Source of the DNA: Patescibacteria group bacterium
GTDB lineage: Bacteria > Patescibacteriota > Minisyncoccia > Phycocordibacterales > UBA918
NCBI GenBank assembly: GCA_040386275.1
Contig: JAZKFU010000003.1
Span: forward strand, 46,554-110,553
DNA: 64,000 nt
Reading direction: 5' to 3'
Every line of letters begins with the position of its first letter. Within the stretch, counting starts at the first letter, position 1. Below are positions 3,712 to 63,862 of the stretch, in pieces. The notes beneath the pieces were generated by a model. The model was not told the origin of the DNA. It ran no database searches and worked only from the letters and a program-made list of their open reading frames with translations. A program made the translations under genes and the position numbers.

Positions 3712-4935
3712 CTATTCTACTACAGCATTCGTGATACAAATTTGTTTATACACGTACGCAGAGGAACGAGGGGTTCGCTCTTGCGTAGCGTAATCTACCG
3801 CAATTAATCCAAAGCGCATTCCAAAGCCTAGTGCCCATTCGTAGTTATCAAGCAATGACCAGTACATGTGCCCGCGTACGTCAGCTCCTTTTTCAATGGC
3901 CCGCCAGGTTCCTAACACTTGTCCTTTAATATATTCAGCCCGCATACTATCAGCAGCGTCAGCAACGCCACCTTCTGACACAAACAAAGGTTTGTTGTAG
4001 CGCGCGAGCATCATGAGCGCTGTTTCAATTTTTTCTGGCGCAAAATTCCAATCCATGTCAGTCTTCCGCCAGGTTCTGTCGTCACCAAACTGCGTATAAA
4101 AATAATAATTAAGACCAATCGAATCACAACAGTCTTTCGTGCGATTCATAAATTTGTAGGTCCAATTGTAGTTTGCGATACGGGCTTTGATTTTATTAAC
4201 GAGACTCTTGTTCGCATCAAACACAATTACATGGTGCACAAAACTAACTTCCGTAGTTGGGGAAACTTTTTTAATGGCTTTGTAGGCTGCATTGTGACTT
4301 TTGGCCAAATTTTTCATCACCCGCAAATACAGAAATAACGGATTGATGCCTTTACTCGCTCTTGAATCAAGCATTTTGCCAGAGTTCGTAATAGAAATTA
4401 CATCCGTTACCGCAAAGCGTTTAAATGGAGGCCAACTACCGCGCAACCAGCCGTTACTCGCAAATACATTCGGTTCGTTCATGGTAGAAAAGTGATCACA
4501 AAGGTCACCTAATTGCTCCACTACGTACGCACAATACCGCGCAAAAATTTCGGGTGAATTTTTTTGTTCAAAGCTCCCTTTTTCAGAAAACCATAGTGGT
4601 TGAGTAAAATGCCAAATTGTAACGTAGGGTTTTAGTCCGCGTGCATGTAGGGCCTCGAGCACCTTTCGGTAGTGAACTATTGCCTCTTCATTAAATTTTC
4701 CTGGGGTAGGCTCAATCCGCGCCCACTCGACAGATAATCGGTGTGCGGTGTGGCCAAGCGATTTAGCTAAATCAAAATCAGCTTCGTACCGATTATAGTG
4801 ATCACAAGCGATTCCACATTCAGGCACGCGTCTTGCCCGAGCCGCTTCGGCCCAGTCGGTGTTATCAATACCGCCTTCGACTTGATAACTTGCCGTAGCC
4901 GAACCCCAGTAAAATCCTTCGGGAAATTTTTTCAT
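3712..4935 (-). CDS. Beta-glucosidase, glycoside hydrolase family 1
   Basis: N-terminal FPEGFYWGSATASYQVEGG. TMNEPN (acid/base) and FVSEGG (nucleophile region) motifs. Length 407 aa. Confidence 0.9.
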   Translation of the reverse strand: MKKFPEGFYWGSATASYQVEGGIDNTDWAEAARARRVPECGIACDHYNRYEADFDLAKSLGHTAHRLSVEWARIEPTPGKFNEEAIVHYRKVLEALHARGLKPYVTIWHFTQPLWFSEKGSFEQKNSPEIFARYCAYVVEQLGDLCDHFSTMNEPNVFASNGWLRGSWPPFKRFAVTDVISITNSGKMLDSRASKGINPLFLYLRVMKNLAKSHNAAYKAIKKVSPTTEVSFVHHVIVFDANKSLVNKIKARIANYNWTYKFMNRTKDCCDSIGLNYYFYTQFGDDRTWRKTDMDWNFAPEKIETALMMLARYNKPLFVSEGGVADAADSMRAEYIKGQVLGTWRAIEKGADVRGHMYWSLLDNYEWALGFGMRFGLIAVDYATQERTPRSSAYVYKQICITNAVVE

Positions 4936-4944
4936 AATTAAATG

Positions 4945-5035
4945 TTTCTCTTCTTACAGAAGCTGTACACCTTGTCAGTATTTTTTACAAAAATACTAGG
5001 CAAGGTCTTGCGAAAGTGCCTATGCACTTTCTCAC
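4945..5035 (+). repeat. Hairpin element core, copy A (same family as the tRNA-linked elements)
   Basis: cttcttacagaagctgtACACCTTGtc-agtattttttacaaaaatact-aggCAAGGTcttgcgaaagtgcctatgcactttc aligns with the tRNA-linked elements at 41634-41710 and 58001-58066. Flanked by an ~18-bp direct duplication of the GH1 start region (4917-4934 vs 5049-5067). Confidence 0.65.
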
Positions 5036-5154
5036 CCCAATAGAATTCTTCGGGAAATGTTTTTTTCAACCCGTTAGAAATTTGTTTGTCCATATGAATT
5101 GTAAATAAGTCTAACAGATTAAATCATTTTAAATATTTGTCATTATACCCTAAA

Positions 5155-5380
5155 GACTTTCAGAAACGAGTACAGTTCTAGGTGAGAAGTGACTCAATGT
5201 CACTTCGCAAGACTCATTGAGAGATTTTACAAAAATATCCAATGAGTGGACAGCTTCTGTAAGAAGGGCAAGGAAATTGTACAAAATGCGGTCCAGCGAT
5301 TTTCCTTAGGAGGAAAAATCGGGACATAAATTCAGAATAATCGCTTCGCTCATTTCTTCATTTGCCATTTGTGAAAGTTC
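5155..5380 (+). repeat. MITE-like intergenic repeat, copy B (long form, ~225 bp) containing an inverted copy of the hairpin core
   Basis: About 85-90% identical to 14850-14960 over the first ~110 bp, homologous through ~aattcagaat. Internal segment 5172-5262 is the reverse complement of element A. Hairpin GAAGTGAC-tcaat-GTCACTTC. Confidence 0.75.
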
Positions 5381-6012
5381 TAGACTAGACTAACAATCAT
5401 TAAGGTAGCTGCCACCAAGAATAATGAATACTCTACCACAGACACCCAATTTGGACGTAAATACCAGTAGATAATCCAATCATCCACCCCAAATCTAGTG
5501 ATGTAGTCCTGTAATTCATTTTCGGTCCACGACACCATAAAGCGTAATTTTGTTTCTTCAATCGGTAATTGTTTTAAATACCCACCGTCTGCGAGCATAG
5601 AACGTAAACGATTAGCGCGGCGTCCAAAAAATTTGTAATGACGCGTCGAAAGTGGCCACAGCAATTGAAGCCCCCAGCCAGTACCATATAAATCATTTAA
5701 TAAATGGAGCGTCACGGCGAGCACAATAATCAATCCCCAAAATCCGCCCCACAGAAGTACTGGTGTAAAAATAAGTAACGAAATGATTGGATAATGCAAA
5801 AATGTCCGGTGGTCTCGGGTGTAGCTGGCGTCAGTACTGACTTTCCCTCGTTTTAGTATCTCCGGAATCGCATCAATATCAGGCAACATCGCAAGCGGTA
5901 GCCCGATTAAAAAATACCACCAGAGTGGTTCGATATCATAGACAGCACACGCAATCAACACTGCAAAAATTCCATTCGCAAAATCCGCCAACAACGCCAG
6001 AATTGATTTCAT
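5380..6012 (-). CDS. Membrane-bound metal-dependent hydrolase-like protein (DUF457/YdjM-like)
   Basis: 210-aa polytopic protein with LAMLPDID and HLLNDL histidine/aspartate motifs, reminiscent of the YdjM family; weak call. Confidence 0.45.
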   Translation of the reverse strand: MKSILALLADFANGIFAVLIACAVYDIEPLWWYFLIGLPLAMLPDIDAIPEILKRGKVSTDASYTRDHRTFLHYPIISLLIFTPVLLWGGFWGLIIVLAVTLHLLNDLYGTGWGLQLLWPLSTRHYKFFGRRANRLRSMLADGGYLKQLPIEETKLRFMVSWTENELQDYITRFGVDDWIIYWYLRPNWVSVVEYSLFLVAATLMIVSLV

Positions 6013-13883: not shown

Positions 13884-13926
13884 AAATAGCATATCCCGTT
13901 GTCGTTGTTCATAAAATAAATTTCAA

Positions 13927-13950
13927 CGTACAAAAAAGTACGTCTCAAAT
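13927..13950 (+). terminator. Rho-independent terminator candidate (ACGTAC-aaaaaa-GTACGT + T-run)
   Basis: Perfect 6-bp hairpin followed by ctcaaattatttt, 45 nt after the methyltransferase stop. Confidence 0.45.
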
Positions 13951-14112
13951 TATTTTATTCCATCTCCTAGGGCTATATCTATTTTTCACTGTCCTAACTA
14001 ATTCTCTTAGATTTATCAAACATTCCTTGCGCGCCTAGGACTAAATCTATTTTTGACAATCCTTCCTTTTCAGAGAGAGTTTAGATTTTATTGAGCTGCT
14101 AGATTACATTAT

Positions 14113-14156
14113 AAAAATACCAAGTAGGAGGTTTTGTCTCTTACTTGGTATTTTGT
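14113..14156. terminator. Bidirectional terminator hairpin (TACCAAGTA...TACTTGGTA flanked by A/T runs)
   Basis: aaaataccaagtaggaggttttgtctcttacttggtatttt lies between convergent genes. Confidence 0.5.
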
Positions 14157-14175
14157 GGTGTAATTTTGCGTAATG

Positions 14176-14445
14176 TTACTGAGAAAACATTTCTTCGTCG
14201 GGGGTTGGAAATTCCATACCTACGTCACTGTGACCGGTTACTGAACTTGAGGCGGTGAGAGGGTCAACGGGTGGGTTACTGGTTGGCGGGGTGTAACCTT
14301 CTCGTGGTTCTCCTTCTGCTGGCGCGGTTGGGATTGGAGTTACCGGTGGTTCTACCACTACTTCAGTTTTTGGATTACTAATCAGATACACGTAGTAACC
14401 TAAGGCCACAATAATCAACGATTGAATAATGATAATAAGTTTCAT
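14176..14445 (-). CDS. Small proline-rich secreted/membrane-anchored protein, hypothetical
   Basis: 89 aa; N-terminal TM helix then a P/T-rich segment. Confidence 0.4.
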   Translation of the reverse strand: MKLIIIIQSLIIVALGYYVYLISNPKTEVVVEPPVTPIPTAPAEGEPREGYTPPTSNPPVDPLTASSSVTGHSDVGMEFPTPDEEMFSQ

Positions 14446-14490
14446 ATGCCCTATTATACCCTGCTTCTTAAAGCTAACTGTATTAATTCA

Positions 14491-14730
14491 CTATTTCCCC
14501 GCTTGTTTTTGTTGTCTTTTTATTGTTTGAAGATACAGTTTTTCTACTTTTTCCCGAGCCCACGGTGTTTTGCGTAAAAATACCAGACTAGAATTAAGGC
14601 TCGGCTTATCAATAAAACAATTAATGGCAATCTTCTCCCCCAACTTCGGAAACCCATACTCAGCAATTAAAAATTCCAAAATTGCCTTCAAAGTAACCCC
14701 ATGCAACGGATTTTTCGGCTGTTCATTCAT
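14491..14730 (-). CDS. VF530/DUF2132-family small protein (putative DNA-binding four-helix protein)
   Basis: NPLHGVTLKAILEFLIAEYGF...SLVFLRKTPWAREKVEKLYL resembles the conserved core of VF530 (DUF2132) proteins. Confidence 0.5.
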   Translation of the reverse strand: MNEQPKNPLHGVTLKAILEFLIAEYGFPKLGEKIAINCFIDKPSLNSSLVFLRKTPWAREKVEKLYLQTIKRQQKQAGK

Positions 14731-14849
14731 AAATTTATAGGTGTAAGTATACTACCACTAAATTATTATTTTTTTATTTTTCTAAAATAAGTTATGTTCA
14801 CTCAAACGTTTTCCTAAATTATATGCAATCTTTTAATTTACCGGTAGGG

Positions 14850-15085
14850 TTTCATAAACGAGTACAGTTCTAGGTGAGAAGTGACTCAATGTCACTTCGC
14901 AAGACTCATTGAGGGATTTTGCAAAAATAACCAATGAGTGGACAGCTTCTGTAAGAAGCGAAAGGACAAAGACGGCAGCTGGTCCAGCGATTTTCCCAAG
15001 GGAAGAAAAAATCGGGACAGAAATTCAGAATTGTCGCTACACTCTGTTCTTCATTCCACAACGAAATGTGCCGTTTCTGGAAGCC
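14850..15085 (+). repeat. MITE-like intergenic repeat, copy C (long form) containing an inverted hairpin core
   Basis: Near-identical to copy B over ~110 bp. Right end caacgaaatgtgccgtttctggaag matches copies D/E. ORFs 14909..15142 and 14938..15168 inside it are judged spurious. Confidence 0.75.
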
Positions 15086-15094
15086 GTCTCCCTT

Positions 15095-41524: not shown

Positions 41525-41610
41525 ATAAATTTATTGTAACATTTTGGCGTACCACATTGGCCTTATGGGACGATGTTAGAACTTTTTTAATTGAAAACAA
41601 CTAGTATATA

Positions 41611-41769
41611 GAGCTGCCGATCAGGGACTCGAAGCTATACAGCTTCAGTACACCTTGTCGCTCATTTGTTTCCTATCGTAACAAAAGAGCTGGCAAGGTC
41701 TTCGAGTCCCTAATCGGACTAGCAATGGCAAAGGCCACAAATGTATTCACATTTGTGGCCTGCCTTTGC
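41611..41769. repeat. tRNA-Gln-linked hairpin element (copy F) plus spacer hairpin
   Basis: 41613-41633 (gctgccgatcagggactcgaa) duplicates the tRNA-Gln 3' end at 41770-41790. Core 41634-41710 has the ACACCTTGTC/GGCAAGGTC stem and ends in ttcgagtccctaatcgg, an inverted copy of the tRNA 3' end. Perfect hairpin GGCCACAAAT-n-ATTTGTGGCC at 41732-41760. Confidence 0.7.
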
Positions 41770-41839
41770 TGCCGATCAGGGACTCGAACCCCAATGACTT
41801 CCTCCAGAGGGAAGCATCCTACCATTAGATGAATCGGCA
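41769..41839 (-). tRNA. tRNA-Gln (anticodon CTG)
   Basis: Minus-strand cloverleaf: acceptor TGCCGAT/ATCGGCA (U1-A72 as in bacterial tRNA-Gln), D-loop with GG, anticodon stem CTTCC/GGAAG with loop CTCTGGA, T-arm TGGGG-TTCGAGT-CCCTG. Ends are +/-2 nt. Confidence 0.7.
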
Positions 41840-41850
41840 AAATTTTGTAA

Positions 41851-41880
41851 GTACGAGGTTAAACCTCGTACTTTTTCTTT
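41851..41880 (+). terminator. Hairpin + T-run (GTACGAGG-ttaaa-CCTCGTAC-TTTTTCTTTT); terminator-like on plus strand or a processing hairpin upstream of tRNA-Gln
   Basis: Perfect 8-bp stem then a T-run. No obvious plus-strand gene upstream. Confidence 0.3.
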
Positions 41881-42000
41881 TAATTTGGTTTGAAAGCGGT
41901 GGCTCTATAGTGCCAGAAATTGGGGAAGTTTCAAGGTAAGGATGTTTGGTTGGTACAAGATGGAGGGGTAACAAGTTCGAGGTCTCGCCTCGAACTTGGA

Positions 42001-57808: not shown

Positions 57809-57940
57809 AAATAATAGATATACAGAAAATTACCTGAGCGTATCACCTCCCAAAAACCCTAACGGGTGCTCAACAGCTATTGTATCATACTACCCATTTT
57901 GGGGTGTTTATAAGTTTTTGTAACCCTTTAAATCTTTAAG

Positions 57941-58068
57941 CAAAACAAAATACCCAAGCAAAGCTTAGGTATTTTATTTGTGCTGGAGGAGGGACTTGAA
58001 ACTTACAGTTTCAGTACAGGTTGTCGCTATTTTTTCAAAATAGCTGGCAACCTTTTCAAGTCCCTGGG
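57941..58068. repeat. tRNA-Leu-linked element (copy G): 60-bp direct repeat (spacer hairpin + tRNA 3' end) flanking a 66-bp hairpin core
   Basis: 57941-58000 is identical to 58069-58128, which runs into tRNA-Leu. Core 58001-58066 is acttacag-tttcagtACAGGTTGtc-GCTATTTT-ttc-AAAATAGC-tgg-CAACCTtt-TTCAAGTCCC. Terminator-like palindrome AAAATACCCAAGC-AAA-GCTTAGGTATTTT in each repeat. Confidence 0.8.
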
Positions 58069-58108
58069 CAAAACAAAATACCCAAGCAAAGCTTAGGTAT
58101 TTTATTTG

Positions 58109-58189
58109 TGCTGGAGGAGGGACTTGAACCCTCAAGCCTTGCGGCATGCGATTTTGAGTCGCACGTGTATACCATTCCACCACTCCAGC
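58109..58189 (-). tRNA. tRNA-Leu (anticodon CAA), class II with long variable arm
   Basis: Acceptor GCTGGAG/CTCCAGC + A73, anticodon stem TGCGA/TCGCA with loop CTCAAAA, variable arm GCC-GCAA-GGC, T-arm GAGGG-TTCAAGT-CCCTC. 81 nt. Confidence 0.85.
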
Positions 58190-60050: not shown

Positions 60051-60121
60051 GGGCCTATAGTTCAGTGGTAGAATACCGGTTTCCAAAACCGTTGACCGAG
60101 GTTCAAGTCCTCGTGGGCCCG
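60051..60121 (+). tRNA. tRNA-Trp (anticodon CCA)
   Basis: Acceptor GGGCCTA/TGGGCCC + G73, D-arm GTTC-AGTGGTA-GAAT, anticodon loop TTCCAAA, T-arm CGAGG-TTCAAGT-CCTCG. Confidence 0.85.
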
Positions 60122-60182
60122 CTGAATAAACGAAGTGAGAGCAGAGGGACCACGATAGCAGCTTTTGAAAAAAGCGTTGCGC

Positions 60183-60278
60183 GGACTTGAAGAGGTTGCC
60201 AGCTATCTTTTTGACGAAGGAGAAAAGTAGTGACAACCTGTACAGAATTCGTAGAATTCAAGTCCTCGTGGGCCCGCC
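60183..60278. repeat. tRNA-Trp-linked hairpin element (copy H)
   Basis: Starts with GGACTTGAA (inverted T-loop). Core AGGTTG-cca-GCTATCTTTT...AAAAGTAGT-ga-CAACCT-gtacag. Ends with ttcaagtcctcgtgggcccgcc, a direct copy of the tRNA-Trp 3' 21 nt. Confidence 0.75.
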
Positions 60279-61222: not shown

Positions 61223-62284
61223 TTATCTGCAAAAAGTTGATGCTCGCAATACTCTGTATCGGCTATCACTGTAATAACCACTGCCATTACTAATAATAAT
61301 TCCTCTGTTTGTTCCTGCAGCATGGATAACTTGTGAACAACCATTATTCATACAAATTACCACATGACCTGCGCCATTAGTTCTATGAATCAATGCATCG
61401 CCAGTTTGAAGACTGCTAGGGCTACCGATGGGAGCGGAGTAGCGTATCATATCTCCCGTATAAGTACCGATTCGACGACATCCTGCTGCAGCATATGCAT
61501 CGTTAACAAGCTCAGAACAGTCTGTATAGCCCGGACTACCAGTACAAGAATTTCGAAGAGGCTGACTATATTGGCATCGTCGTTGTCGTTGTGCTTCCGC
61601 AAACCGTACAATAGCACTATTGCCTCCAGTACCAATTGGAGCTACATAATCTCCTCCACCGCCGCCCGCACCACCACCACCTAACTCAGACCCAGGTACA
61701 GCTACCGCGGTTGGATCTGGCTCTTCTGCCTCAAGGTATTCTACTTCATCTTGCTCGACCTCATTAAATACAGTTTCAACTTGGTTCTGGCAAGTTACCT
61801 CACTCCAAAACAAATACCCAGAAGCGGTTCCGCCCGCGACAATTTGCCCAGGATTACCATCTGTTCCAACTAACGCCCGCATGATGGTGTCTACAATAAG
61901 CCAGGCAGCTAAAATAATCATAAAGCCAACAATGGCGTTTATAAATGAGGACTTGGCTTCATCGAGCGCATGATGATTCCCCCCTGACGTTACCAACTTC
62001 ACTCCCGCAATAGCGAGCAAAAGTGCGAAGATAACAAATAGTATCCCAATGAGCCAGGTAATTAATCCATTGGCCATCGACACAACATTACAAGCGCTAC
62101 AATCTAAACCAGTACAACCCGACAACTGCGCTAAACCAAGGTCACCTGCAAACGCAGACGGCACAAAAAACCCAAACAGAAAGACTAGTAAGAATATTAT
62201 GGGAACTATTTTCATATTATAGTTTGGCAGTATCGGGACAGAAACTAAACCGGTAATCAAACCCAGAAGCAACTTCATCAACAT
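61223..62284 (-). CDS. VirB2/TrbC-pilin-like double-TM module fused to a CHAP/NlpC-P60-type peptidoglycan amidase/peptidase domain
   Basis: Signal peptide (MKIVPIIFLLVFLFGFFVPSAFA), Cys-rich loop CTGLDCSAC, two hydrophobic helices around KLVTSGGN...EAKSS, Gly-rich linker. C-terminal DCSELVNDAY (Cys) and GHVVIC (His) resemble a CHAP catalytic pair. Start may be the internal Met. Confidence 0.55.
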   Translation of the reverse strand: MLMKLLLGLITGLVSVPILPNYNMKIVPIIFLLVFLFGFFVPSAFAGDLGLAQLSGCTGLDCSACNVVSMANGLITWLIGILFVIFALLLAIAGVKLVTSGGNHHALDEAKSSFINAIVGFMIILAAWLIVDTIMRALVGTDGNPGQIVAGGTASGYLFWSEVTCQNQVETVFNEVEQDEVEYLEAEEPDPTAVAVPGSELGGGGAGGGGGDYVAPIGTGGNSAIVRFAEAQRQRRCQYSQPLRNSCTGSPGYTDCSELVNDAYAAAGCRRIGTYTGDMIRYSAPIGSPSSLQTGDALIHRTNGAGHVVICMNNGCSQVIHAAGTNRGIIISNGSGYYSDSRYRVLRASTFCR

Positions 62285-62714
62285 ATCCCGGAACCGTAAC
62301 TACATATGATAGTTGGCACATTTCCTCTTCATCTATTTTTAATAAATCTTTTAAATAGACTTCGGCTGCTAGCCTACTTTGAGCAAATGGTTTTTGAAGA
62401 AGCGCTATATTAAAGGTGCCAGTATTTTTATCAAACATGACAACGTAGTTAGGTAGTTTGCTCGGAGTTTCTGCAGAAGGGAAAGTATTGCCCAAGGAAT
62501 ACAAACCAGGGTTTTGAACATCCGGCGCTACGGATTCATCTTTCAAAAAATTATTGGTTACTACATTACCTTCGGTAGACGGAAAGGTGACTTGCGAATC
62601 AGTGTATTCAACAGTAGTTACTGGTGTTGAATTATTTTTTGTATATATAATTCCCCCAATCACTATTACAAGCACAATGATTACCGCCAATATGATATAT
62701 ACGTTTTTATTCAT
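62217..62714 (-). CDS. Hypothetical membrane-anchored protein
   Basis: 165 aa with an N-terminal TM, lying between the two pilin-like paralogs. Confidence 0.4.
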   Translation of the reverse strand: MNKNVYIILAVIIVLVIVIGGIIYTKNNSTPVTTVEYTDSQVTFPSTEGNVVTNNFLKDESVAPDVQNPGLYSLGNTFPSAETPSKLPNYVVMFDKNTGTFNIALLQKPFAQSRLAAEVYLKDLLKIDEEEMCQLSYVVTVPGYVDEVASGFDYRFSFCPDTAKL

Positions 62715-62725
62715 GTTGTTTTATG

Positions 62726-63862
62726 TTAGCCACCATAACGCGTAATACATTGCATCGCTCGTGAATTGCAATTGGCACATGTCCAATCATTATACCCATT
62801 ACGCCTTACTATATTAACTGCTACCCTGGTATTACAACTGGCATTCTGACAACTTGTAGCATGGTCACTACAGGAACCCCCAACGTTATATAAATTCCAG
62901 GTCGTTCGCACAATTTGAAATAGCCCACAAGCACTAGAATTAGAACCAGGATGAGTAACATTATATGGTGGAGTTGCGGGGTTACCCGAGCTCTCGGTCA
63001 TAGCAATACACGACATTACATTTGCCTGTGTAATAGTCATGCCAGCCGCGCGTAACGCAGGGACGCTACAGTAGGTATTAGTACATTGCGGTAAACTACC
63101 CCCTGTCCCACCACCACTGACTTGTCGCGGAGCACACAGTACAGCACTTCCGGCAGCGTTAAGGGTTGGCGTACCAGGCGCAGCGCGACACTGTGCTTCT
63201 TGAGCCGAACAATCATACTCATTTACTCCCGGCGGTCCTGGCAGAAGTCTACAGGCGGCATTATAAGAACCAGCTGGAGCTGAAGAACCTCCTGCAGTAC
63301 TCCCCGCCGGCACCCAACCCTGCACACCACCCAGCCCTTCCTCAAGCGAAAGGTACTCAATAGCATCTTGTGTAACGGTAATCGAGCGAGCCAGTGGCTG
63401 ATCAACACAGCTTATTTGATTCCAGACACCAAAACTATATGTCCCATCTTGAAGCAACAAAGCGCGCAACCCATAGTCGAGCACCAACCACGCCGCTAAC
63501 ACAATTAAGTATCCAATCAACAAATTAGTCATGGAACTTTTCGCTTCTTCTTTCGCACTAGAATTACCCGCTGACGTTACTAATCGTGCCCCCGCCACAA
63601 CGATCAAAATCGCCGCAATCACCCCGAGTATCATCACGAGCCACCCCACAACATTGTTAACCAATACCACCACATGACATGCCTGACACGGCGGTTCACC
63701 TGCTCCGCCACACGCTGGCACCAAACCAGCCGCCCCGACCGACACCGGAACAATAAATATACAAACCATTACCACAAGGGCTACCAGGAGTTTCTGCATT
63801 ACCAATAAGCTTACCACACAACCCCTTTCTAAATACCCGAAACTGTGATAATTTGTACCCAC
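62726..63862 (-). CDS. VirB2/TrbC-pilin-like double-TM module fused to a lytic transglycosylase (SLT) domain
   Basis: N-terminal module paralogous to 61223..62284 (RLVTSAGN...EAKSS...VLAAWLVLD). C-terminal IAMTESSGNP and GLFQI, the ES / GLxQ signatures of family-1 lytic transglycosylases. Cys-rich. Confidence 0.6.
   Translation of the reverse strand: MGTNYHSFGYLERGCVVSLLVMQKLLVALVVMVCIFIVPVSVGAAGLVPACGGAGEPPCQACHVVVLVNNVVGWLVMILGVIAAILIVVAGARLVTSAGNSSAKEEAKSSMTNLLIGYLIVLAAWLVLDYGLRALLLQDGTYSFGVWNQISCVDQPLARSITVTQDAIEYLSLEEGLGGVQGWVPAGSTAGGSSAPAGSYNAACRLLPGPPGVNEYDCSAQEAQCRAAPGTPTLNAAGSAVLCAPRQVSGGGTGGSLPQCTNTYCSVPALRAAGMTITQANVMSCIAMTESSGNPATPPYNVTHPGSNSSACGLFQIVRTTWNLYNVGGSCSDHATSCQNASCNTRVAVNIVRRNGYNDWTCANCNSRAMQCITRYGG

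Follow-up and report, generated by a model that had tools for sequence, protein, structure and literature searches.

A covarying non-coding hairpin element at tRNA genes of Patescibacteria, bounded by copies of the tRNA 3' end: a candidate trans-mobilised insertion unit

Introduction

Genes for tRNA are classic landing pads of mobile DNA, and the known users of these sites are kilobase-sized and carry an integrase. The textbook sign of integration by the T-loop sublocation class of integrases is a direct repeat reaching from the T-loop as far as the tRNA 3' end. Integrons follow a plan of their own, with attC core sites of the form RYYYAAC (R'') and GTTRRRY (R'), and with IntI, attI and Pc at the array. 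Patescibacteria, with genomes of about 1 Mb, have few recognised mobile elements. The present work concerns a stretch of 64,000 nucleotides from a Patescibacteria group bacterium (assembly GCA_040386275.1, contig JAZKFU010000003.1, positions 46,554 to 110,553), hereafter the window, in which a tRNA-Gln gene is followed by a short non-coding element bounded by direct and inverted copies of the 3' end of that same tRNA.

The element resembles prophages, islands and integrative and conjugative elements of the T-loop class in that its repeat extends from the T-loop to the 3' end (T54-C74), the tRNA is intact and the displaced end lies downstream. It differs from them in its size, 155 bp as against kilobases, and in holding neither an integrase nor any other gene, with only 134 bp of non-coding DNA between the two 21-nucleotide (nt) repeats. 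It also differs in possessing an inverted copy of the target and a covarying hairpin, and in that a single core family occurs at many tRNAs. A description of these elements was not found in the full-text literature, and the family is, to our knowledge and within the literature and databases searched, apparently undescribed.

The tRNA-Gln locus and its sister copies

The observation on which this work builds, a preliminary description of the tRNA-Gln locus made from the DNA letters, is confirmed: all of the features described are present, with small corrections only (Table 1). Positions are those of the window, and the order of the locus is read on the tRNA (minus) strand; A denotes the segment from T54 to the tRNA 3' end, and A' its inverted copy. 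The tRNA, whose 3' part reads GGGG-TTCGAGT-CCCTG-ATCGGCA-G-C, does not encode CCA, only C74. The direct repeat of this 3' end is 100% identical, as claimed, with its tRNA-side copy lying 2 nt from the place first given (41770-41790), and the distal copy is read as a displaced or duplicated tRNA-Gln 3' end. The inverted copy, said to be able to enclose the core in an 18-bp stem, was recovered as a pair of 18-nt arms (41617-41634 and 41700-41717), 94% complementary and with 65 nt between them. The hairpin in the trailer had been taken for a 10-bp spacer separating the element from the tRNA. Its perfect stem stands, although with 13 bp (arms 41732-41744 and 41749-41761, loop 4 nt, by inverted-repeat search), whereas its independence does not: the hairpin caps a palindrome to which the tRNA 3' end, the trailer and their inverted copy contribute. 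The order of this longer, imperfect palindrome is A-trailer-hairpin-trailer'-A', and the minimum-free-energy fold pairs 41701-41788 almost continuously. The hairpin (41732-41761) is without a T-run, its minus-strand tail being TTTGCCATT, and the terminator scan did not call an intrinsic terminator there; a scan of the locus for promoter-like sites found none.

Chance is excluded as the origin of the Gln repeats, because an exact 21-mer would recur within 200 nt with a probability of about 200/4^21, or ~5e-11 by our own estimate, and because of the fold scores: the minimum fold has z = -10.6 as RNA (41600-41795) and z = -7.7 as DNA (41608-41722, A'-core-A), and 0 of 200 shuffles fold as well. 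Downstream of the distal repeat lies a further, decayed segment which, judging from its letters, may be homologous to the tRNA-Gln 3' end. On the other side, directly 5' of the tRNA and on the opposite strand, there is a terminator-like hairpin followed by a T-run (41849-41873, plus), with 11 pairs in the terminator scan and 12-nt perfect arms in the repeat finder. A 13-nt imperfect inverted repeat (85%; 41607-41619 / 41897-41909, TATAGAGCTGCCG / CGGTGGCTCTATA) spans tRNA and element and may be due to chance.

Table 1. Features of the tRNA-Gln locus and its sister copies, in window coordinates
Feature	Position	Strand	Evidence
tRNA-Gln(CTG), intact	41768-41839	minus	ARAGORN; Rfam RF00005 at 41769-41839, 50.3 bits
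Proximal copy A (T54 to discriminator G73 + C74), TTCGAGTCCCTGATCGGCAGC, within the functional tRNA-Gln	41768-41788	minus	direct repeat, 100% identical
Trailer, 50 nt, centred on a perfect 13-bp hairpin	41718-41767	minus	inverted-repeat search
Inverted copy A', CCGATTAGGGACTCGAAG, complement of T54 to ~G69, 17/18 matched	41700-41717	minus	inverted-repeat search
Conserved core type 1, 66 nt	41634-41699	minus	alignment with Leu and Trp copies; covariance model 88.4 bits, E 8e-20; covariation counts
Core, P1 stem	41694-41699 with 41652-41657	minus	
Core, internal loop CCA / GA	41691-41693 / 41658-41659	minus	
Core, junction strand GTACTGAA	41644-41651	minus	
Core, mini hairpin	41634-41643	minus	
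Distal copy A, exact 21-nt repeat T54-C74, plus-strand letters GCTGCCGATCAGGGACTCGAA	41613-41633	minus	direct-repeat search
Decayed further tRNA-Gln 3'-end copy (putative), ..GTTCTAACATCGTCCCATAAGGCCA, downstream of the distal repeat	41560-41592	minus	read from sequence
Sister copy at tRNA-Leu(CAA) (tRNA 58108-58189)	57985-58072	minus	covariance model 95.4 bits
Sister copy at tRNA-Trp (tRNA 60051-60122)	60174-60277	plus	covariance model 84.4 bits

Three of the four tRNAs in the window carry the element, and the fourth lies at the window edge. The architecture said to be common to the Gln, Leu and Trp loci is borne out by an alignment of the three copies and by the covariance model, under which they score 84.4-95.4 bits (E 1e-21 to 1e-18). 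The core stem shows CC/GG in the Gln copy and GG/CC in those at Leu and Trp; the correspondence of ACCTTG/CAAGGT with AGGTTG/CAACCT proposed earlier is thus upheld by the alignment as a compensatory double change. The direct repeat measures 21 nt at tRNA-Trp (60102-60122 / 60257-60277) and 61 nt, including the terminator, at tRNA-Leu (57941-58001 / 58068-58128), where it forms a tandem unit. Distal to the intact tRNA-Leu unit, at 57900-57940, a third, strongly decayed A'/core remnant can be recognised (TTTAAATCTTTAAG versus TTCAAGTCCCTGGG), in which every difference is a change from G/C to A/T. In tRNA orientation the consensus runs from the tRNA, which ends in A, through trailer and hairpin, A', rA-SS-TTG, CCA, GC, a variable hairpin, GC, GA, CAA-SS-T, GTACnGAA and nnn-GTA-n'n'n' to the next A.

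Structure of the core

Folded, the core is a three-way junction whose helices covary strongly. At tRNA-Gln its minus strand reads A-CCTTG, CCA, GC, the variable hairpin, GC, GA, CAAGG-T, GTACTGAA and GCT-GTA(T)-AGC, the mini hairpin having one extra nucleotide. An alignment of 59 copies has 93% pairing over the cells of the proposed helices and double-sided changes at 16 of the 29 pairs; the covariation score is 0.336 as against 0.114 in shuffles (0 of 500 reach it) and at most 0.087 when the partners are slid. The core-stem swap between GG/CC and CC/GG divides the copies 58:23, with 4 mismatched cases only. Most striking among the helices is the 3-bp mini hairpin: 76 of 85 copies have it paired throughout, at least 10 different complementary triplets are used, and its GTA loop is kept in 79 of 85. 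Among unpaired positions, those of the CCA/GA internal loop and of the strand (T)GTACTGAA vary hardly or not at all. RNAalifold, a check that had been proposed at the outset, independently gave the three-way junction on the family alignment; in this fold GAAnnn pairs with n'n'n'TTC, and T54-C56 can pair with either the junction strand or A'. The loops look sense-specific, being GNA/GNRA-like in the tRNA sense, and a UGA...GAAA tandem-GA motif caps the long variable hairpins; in fold stability the antisense strand is slightly ahead.

Distribution and targets of the family

An exact core-pattern scan of 185,579 species genomes returned 85 stretches (like the other loci cited below, given L numbers), of which 81 belong to Patescibacteria, the Candidate Phyla Radiation (CPR): Kaiserbacteria, Paceibacteria, Nomurabacteria, Parcubacteria and related metagenome-assembled genomes (MAGs). 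The other four, from Acidimicrobiia, were judged unrelated, as they are GC-rich and coding-like, with 64-nt spacing and no T-loop flanks. The earlier notion of a recurring element type bounded by inverted tRNA 3'-end copies accordingly holds well beyond the window, the same core being found at 81 patescibacterial loci, most of them with tRNA-specific inverted and direct copies.

The position of the core relative to the tRNA is highly regular. More than 40 loci have it 55-100 nt 3' of a tRNA on the same strand, and at least 13 specificities are represented (Cys, Leu, Ile, Gln, Met, Ser, Asp, Ala, Arg, Trp, Val, His and Thr). Beginning at T54/G53, or -21/-22 counted from the end of the tRNA, the direct repeat follows the core by 8-9 nt in 40+ loci. 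Its usual length of 21-28 nt carries it just through the 3' end of the tRNA; all of these genes have C at position 74. Many distal copies of A are decayed, with repeats of 7-17 nt. In 59 of the 85 copies, the sequence directly upstream of the core is complementary to 8 or more of the first 12 nt of A. A T(T/C)GAA pentamer precedes the core in all copies, and a hairpin with a 3' strand ending in TCG(A/C)AA always does so. The target looks like a T-loop-like T(T/A)CRA motif. In many loci (e.g. L009, L021, L025, L058, L084) small covarying hairpins split A' between its acceptor and T-stem parts; their conserved loops include nnnGTC-TGGGAG-GACnnn, GCAGCTTTT..AAAGCGT and AGCAAACTGCTTTGCT.

Several distinct core families share the junction strand and the mini hairpin. 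In the fetched loci, tRNAs with A'/A copies and no type-1 core bear one of these other cores in that place. Type 2 reads GCCCGATTGAG-hairpin-CCAATTGGGGTACTGAAnnnGTAnnn, and type 3 reads GACCTTTTGAG..CCAAAAGGTGTACYGAAnnnGTAnnn. Type 4 is a different module of two hairpins, AGACGGAG..GGGGTCGCGAACACTTAGTAGA-hairpin-TACTTAGTGAYTCGTGAC, joined to the tRNA copy at C56. Elements are also nested: type-1 cores sit within type-4 elements at a TCGCGAAC/TTCGAGAAC motif in 13 loci, TTCGAGAAC and TACGAAC being T-loop-like, and a type-1 core lies inside the loop of a type-2 element in L077. The targets are not limited to tRNA, because in L060 (~5100-5450) a type-1 core with its upstream hairpin lies within an incomplete copy of 5S rRNA, comprising its 5' part, and the intact 5S gene follows just downstream. 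The window itself holds a tRNA-less, type-1-like core at 4952-5007 (element 4952-5040, minus; 33.6 bits, E 4e-6), which has the hairpin GGGGTGAGAAAGTGC-ATAG-GCACTTTCGCAA in front of it and stops 17 nt short of the ATG of a GH1 glycosidase gene (3712-4935). In the nested, 5S and tRNA-less cases, that at 4952-5007 included, the place of the upstream partner is taken by a simple hairpin that covaries and ends in TTCGCAA, rather than by a tRNA-derived palindrome.

Some further features of the window and of the fetched loci are recorded here. Two repeats of about 210 nt, 85% identical (5160-5365 and 14855-15060, both plus), show the same order of modules (GGTGAGAA-hairpin-TTCGCAAGA, main hairpin, GGACAG, cttcTGTAAgaag mini hairpin) with an additional hairpin; pieces homologous to them occur in L039, L069 and L080, and they probably represent a further superfamily member or else a structured RNA. 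One of the two lies in a 1.2-kb region (13884-15094) that has no open reading frame (ORF) of at least 100 amino acids and no Rfam match. Two neighbouring genes at 61223-63862 (minus) have N-termini resembling pilins of type IV secretion systems, fused to cell-wall hydrolase domains (NlpC/P60 and a lysozyme-like SLT_3). In L078, a group I intron (4658-4883, minus; Rfam 56.9 bits) lies in a tRNA gene that ARAGORN missed, and this tRNA is followed by a nested type-4/type-1 element. Introns of group I within genes for tRNA have been reported as abundant in Patescibacteria, at position 35/36 (PMC13011429); a relation to the present elements was rejected, given that position and the lack of relation between the L078 intron and the cores.

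Relatives, arrays and exchange of cores

Syntenic loci were recovered by a metagenome scan anchored on HolB. In the closest of these (L088, HolB 68% identical), an identical tRNA-Gln(CTG) 3' end is followed by CCA and an ordinary trailer with terminator, without A', core or repeat, and six more distant syntenic tRNA-Gln loci are also empty. Occupancy is sporadic in general, a downstream repeat being present at 54 of 130 tRNAs in the fetched set of loci, which is a biased one. In L065, a nearer relative whose genes are 75-80% identical in nucleotides, the same element recurs with 92.5% identity, detached from a tRNA, and a second element adjoins the tRNA-Gln. Beside the orthologous element, the place of the tRNA is occupied at L065 2873-2905 by a decayed piece like that at 41560-41592 of the window, which suggests an older array or a permuted unit. 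The same relative contains, at 3775-3875 (minus) and directly upstream of the intact tRNA-Gln, a tRNA-Gln-like 5' fragment that stops inside the T-loop (..GGTTCGAG, then gcataat), a breakpoint of the T-loop that lies on the 5' side.

L016, L022, L050, L057 and L058 have units in tandem, as has tRNA-Leu of the window, and arrays may be mixed, type 1 being followed by type 3 in L078 and by type 4 in L018. The type-4 unit of L018 is absent from L034, which is otherwise 94-100% identical. A' matches the upstream, tRNA-side A better than the distal A by 10 cases to 6, or by 9 to 6 when the tRNA-Gln row of the window, mis-registered by its extra mini-hairpin nucleotide, is left out. In internal units of arrays, A and A' are near-perfectly complementary even though they are unlike the tRNA (16/16 in L078, 19/21 in L058), and the palindrome takes in trailer sequence around the hairpin, not the tRNA alone. 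Because of these three properties, the repeating unit is taken to be A, trailer with hairpin, A' and core, with the last A as the displaced end. A' is not a copy of the 5' strands of the tRNA: at the G.U pair 50:64 of tRNA-Gln, it has the reverse-complement base. An encoded CCA, considered as a possible mark of the native copy, follows the distal copy in 6 cases and the proximal copy in 3, a difference that is not significant. The proximal trailer often has a good intrinsic terminator before A', and in many sister loci a true terminator stands at the position of the hairpin.

Near-identical cores occur beside different tRNAs within one MAG (L003/L062, 98%; L033/L037, 89%), and overall core identity follows neither genome nor tRNA (0.76 / 0.77 / 0.75). 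The elements of L080 and L083 are 99% identical, with nothing else alignable in 8 kb. A search for strain variants through exact protein matches yielded only two short contigs, from the same sample as the window (L001, L087); both are short-read contigs that break at the locus, at the 41849-41873 hairpin.

Discussion

The reading to which we incline, giving it about even credence, is that the element is a non-autonomous hairpin insertion unit, mobilised in trans and specific for the T-loop position of tRNA genes, in the manner of an integrative cassette that acts as a folded single strand. DNA mobility, a single-strand mechanism and the choice of the incoming A copy are what we infer beside the observed anatomy, family, T54 boundary, covariation, presence and absence among relatives, arrays and nesting. 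The unit would comprise about 155 bp of non-coding DNA (~60-160 nt across the family) in the order A, trailer with hairpin, A' and a core of ~66 nt. On insertion between G53 and T54, its own A would complete the tRNA, and the former 3' end would be pushed downstream, where it would remain visible as the 21-nt direct repeat. One strand may fold into two hairpins, the long A:A' hairpin and a Y-shaped core, the latter consisting of the main hairpin with its invariant CCA/GA loop, the junction strand GTACTGAA and a GTA-loop mini hairpin of 3-6 bp that abuts the T54 junction. By analogy with integron attC, the CTX-phi attP hairpin and the ends of IS200/IS605, this folded strand could serve as the recombination site for an enzyme supplied in trans, and insertion would regenerate a working tRNA, as it does for tRNA-targeting integrative elements. 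An empty site would then read ..ATTGGGGTTCGAGTCCCTGATCGGCAGC joined to TCTATATACTAG, and a circle or tandem junction, in outward orientation, would read ..GCTGTATAGC joined to TTCGAGTCCCTGATCGGCAGCAAAGGCAGG.

Several results weigh against such a unit. No recombinase, transposase, HUH nuclease, reverse transcriptase or Cas/Tas protein was found among the 51 larger, non-overlapping window ORFs that were scanned (several smaller ORFs were left out). Nor do the 8-kb flanks of the 85 loci share a recurrent protein, ORF clustering having given housekeeping clusters only. The core is absent from IMG/VR, the INPHARED phages and the PLSDB plasmids by pattern scan and BLAST (5 chance matches only), which leaves no candidate vehicle, and in read-derived contigs, which break at the locus, no excision product, circle or within-population empty site was seen. 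The cores are common to different tRNAs, yet the arms match their own tRNA in every copy, so that a cassette with a fixed att site is insufficient and a target-copying step is needed. Mismatches of the G.T and A.C kinds are balanced (4:5 and 8:7) and do not discriminate RNA from single-stranded DNA, and the conserved unpaired nucleotides of the junction fit a functional RNA equally well. The arms could have arisen in one of two ways. The target may serve as their template at the time of insertion, say in hairpin-primed or template-switch synthesis of the kind seen in rolling-hairpin replication and tandem-inversion duplications, or cores may be exchanged between pre-existing units by recombination. 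The scanned ORFs look like ordinary chromosomal genes (HolB, DAGK, ParB, MiaA, TopA, DprA, RelA, SerRS and others), none is a Y1_Tnp or TnpB, and NCBIfam added nothing relevant for those without a Pfam match.

A host-functional structured RNA in the tRNA trailer, either a small ribozyme or a protein-binding three-way junction, transcribed with or after the tRNA and duplicated under selection rather than by mobility, is a possible but rather doubtful alternative. The distal A might then be a releasable fragment from T54 to the 3' end that replaces tRNA ends cleaved at the T-loop, or A'-core-A might act as a mimic or decoy of the acceptor and T-stem. This explanation is viable because conserved junction nucleotides beside a precise boundary are also expected of a small ribozyme: the unpaired CCA/GA loop, GUACUGAA and the GUA triloop are invariant while the stems covary, and the T54 junction comes directly after the covarying mini hairpin, as at ribozyme cleavage sites. 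It would also account for the GNA/GNRA-like loops and UGA...GAAA tandem-GA tips of the sense strand, for a distal A with, in many cases, 100% conservation reaching exactly as far as the tRNA 3' end and with a terminator-like hairpin behind it, for the related tRNA-less core just upstream of the GH1 gene start (4952-5007), and for the layout of acceptor stem, arm and T-stem that a full-length A' with its small interrupting hairpin resembles. On the other hand, the families of Rfam 15, among them hammerhead, twister, pistol, hatchet, HDV-like, group I, YrlA and all known self-cleaving ribozymes, gave no match at gathering score or at E<=10 besides tRNA and spurious miRNA-type hairpins. A comparison of the junctions by eye, in length and in sequence, with hammerhead and other known ribozymes, k-turn and box C/D likewise led to their rejection. 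A terminator often precedes A', so that co-transcription with the tRNA is doubtful, and the Gln locus lacks a promoter-like site in our scan. Many distal A copies are decayed, occupancy is sporadic, with orthologous tRNA-Gln genes in relatives lacking the element, and the counts of G.U and A.C carry no signal of an RNA strand. A passive by-product of replication, of the tandem-inversion-duplication type, we hold to be improbable. Here a nascent strand would snap back at the terminator hairpin, copy the tRNA 3' end in reverse and switch at the core through T-loop microhomology (TCGAA / TTCGA), the core spreading only by virtue of its strong hairpin with T-loop sequence on the flanks. Such events have as their signature copies in direct-inverted-direct order and junctions at two hairpins, here those of terminator and core, the palindrome includes the trailer as well as the tRNA, the arms are always derived from the target, and no enzyme was found in the searches above. 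Such a by-product would nevertheless leave unexplained why unpaired core nucleotides are conserved across genomes whose proteins are 45-70% identical, why the T54 boundary is exact in 40+ loci, why several core families have a common junction strand and mini hairpin, and why occupancy reaches three of four tRNAs in the window.

That the locus is the scar of a prophage or island inserted at the T-loop by a tyrosine integrase, with attL on the tRNA side, attR at the distal copy and the rest deleted, seems more improbable again. It would fit the direct repeat from T-loop to 3' end, the signature of tRNA-integrating elements, and the T-loop breakpoint in the truncated tRNA-Gln 5' fragment of L065. 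It would not fit the uniform unit size (~110-160 bp) in dozens of independent loci without gene remnants, nor the lack of an integrase in the scanned window ORFs or the flanks and of any viral or plasmid match; hairpin covariation is not expected of double-stranded attP arms, and a target-specific inverted copy is not a feature of att sites. A degenerate second tRNA-Gln, or a chance duplication, which the repeats might suggest in being pieces of tRNA-Gln, deserves practically no weight. The preliminary description had already argued against a second gene, and neither ARAGORN nor Rfam, even at E<=10, found a cloverleaf or tRNA-model match in 41611-41767; the same non-tRNA core occurs at 13+ tRNA types and 81 loci, and the exact 21-mer together with a 17/18 inverted copy lies far beyond chance. 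Homing of a type V-K CRISPR-associated transposon, or Tn7-like ends, considered because of TGTAC-like motifs and tRNA proximity, was rejected, as no cas12k or tns genes were found and the element has only 155 bp.

In Patescibacteria a gene-less segment of ~60-160 nt occupies the landing position of the kilobase elements at many different tRNAs, and its tRNA-specific arms must be made anew for each target. The copying step and its enzyme could reveal a new chemistry of single-strand or hairpin recombination with target copying, of interest for programmable insertion. The alternatives would have their own returns, in an RNA motif or ribozyme tied to tRNA 3' ends, or in a pathway of replication errors by which reduced genomes are shaped. 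In practice, assembly breaks and partial 'tRNA fragments' of CPR MAGs find their explanation in the repeats, which also provide a lineage marker. A stronger proposal, which we put forward as a speculation and think unlikely, is either a self-programming, protein-less hairpin element, which would copy its target into both arms, regenerate the tRNA and use the T-loop of any tRNA gene as well as T-loop-like motifs, or else an RNA device, in the form of a new small ribozyme or three-way junction, that would keep spare tRNA 3' fragments from T54 in store and release them. Either of these, if true, would be without precedent in bacteria and specific to ultra-small CPR lineages; that the mechanism is categorically new is, in our estimation, similarly unlikely, though a real possibility.

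Relation to described systems

Among the systems with which the element may be compared, the dual guides of TIGR-Tas have a different architecture (PMC12045711). In the present case there is no array of tandem 36-nt or stem-loop units with box C/D motifs, the scanned ORFs include no Tas or Nop-domain protein, and the arms are complementary to each other, not to offset target strands. The Y- or T-shaped terminal hairpins of parvoviruses offer a closer formal likeness, since the A':A stem is closed by two internal hairpins and hairpin-primed copying would yield an inverted copy of the neighbouring sequence. The analogy is formal only, there being no Rep gene and no linear replicon in this bacterial chromosomal context.

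The double-hairpin elements of organelles, the palindromic elements of Rickettsia and the Correia or MITE (miniature inverted-repeat transposable element) repeats are likewise short, mobile-looking hairpins of reduced genomes with no identified enzyme. We know of none that targets the T-loop or carries both inverted and direct copies of its target. Unlike in a MITE, with its constant terminal inverted repeats, the inverted arms here change with the adjacent tRNA, and no short duplication flanks A'-core-A. The ends of IS200/IS605, palindrome-associated transposable elements (PATEs), and repetitive extragenic palindromes and bacterial interspersed mosaic elements (REP/BIME) with their REP-associated tyrosine transposase (RAYT) are non-coding hairpins recognised as folded single strands, for which a transposase may act in trans. 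IS200/IS605 elements insert 3' of a fixed tetra- or pentanucleotide, and cleavage beside the hairpin is set by paired guides; in the present element nnn/n'n'n' abuts the junction, A' is complementary to the target and the core comes after T(T/C)GAA. Those elements, however, make no target duplication, as against the 21-nt repeat here, have no inverted target copy and bear similar hairpins at both ends, and no Y1/HUH protein is present among the scanned ORFs.

The comparison with integrons is the most extensive. The arms, ..GGGACTCGAA(G) and (C)TTCGAGTCCC, do not conform to RYYYAAC/GTTRRRY: the fourth base of G/TTCGAG, C, is not a purine, and the inverse arm ends in a base other than C. The paired arm, of 9-20 bp, copies the individual tRNA, and no IntI, attI or Pc was found (51 window ORFs; no recurrent flank protein). 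The target lies inside a tRNA gene whose 3' end is supplied by the unit, a 17-nt asymmetric branch stands at the junction, and single-strand recombination is here a matter of inference. In common with integron cassettes and their attC sites, and with the attP(+) hairpin of CTX-phi used by XerCD, the element is a small and possibly non-coding unit with a terminal imperfect palindrome, the outer arm of which is complementary both to the start of the unit and to what follows it. As in attC, the boundary falls at G/TT, structure is conserved over sequence, unpaired bases are kept and the terminal hairpin is variable. Tandem arrays and one defined host site complete the likeness, and the arrangement as a whole is formally equivalent to a cassette at attI.

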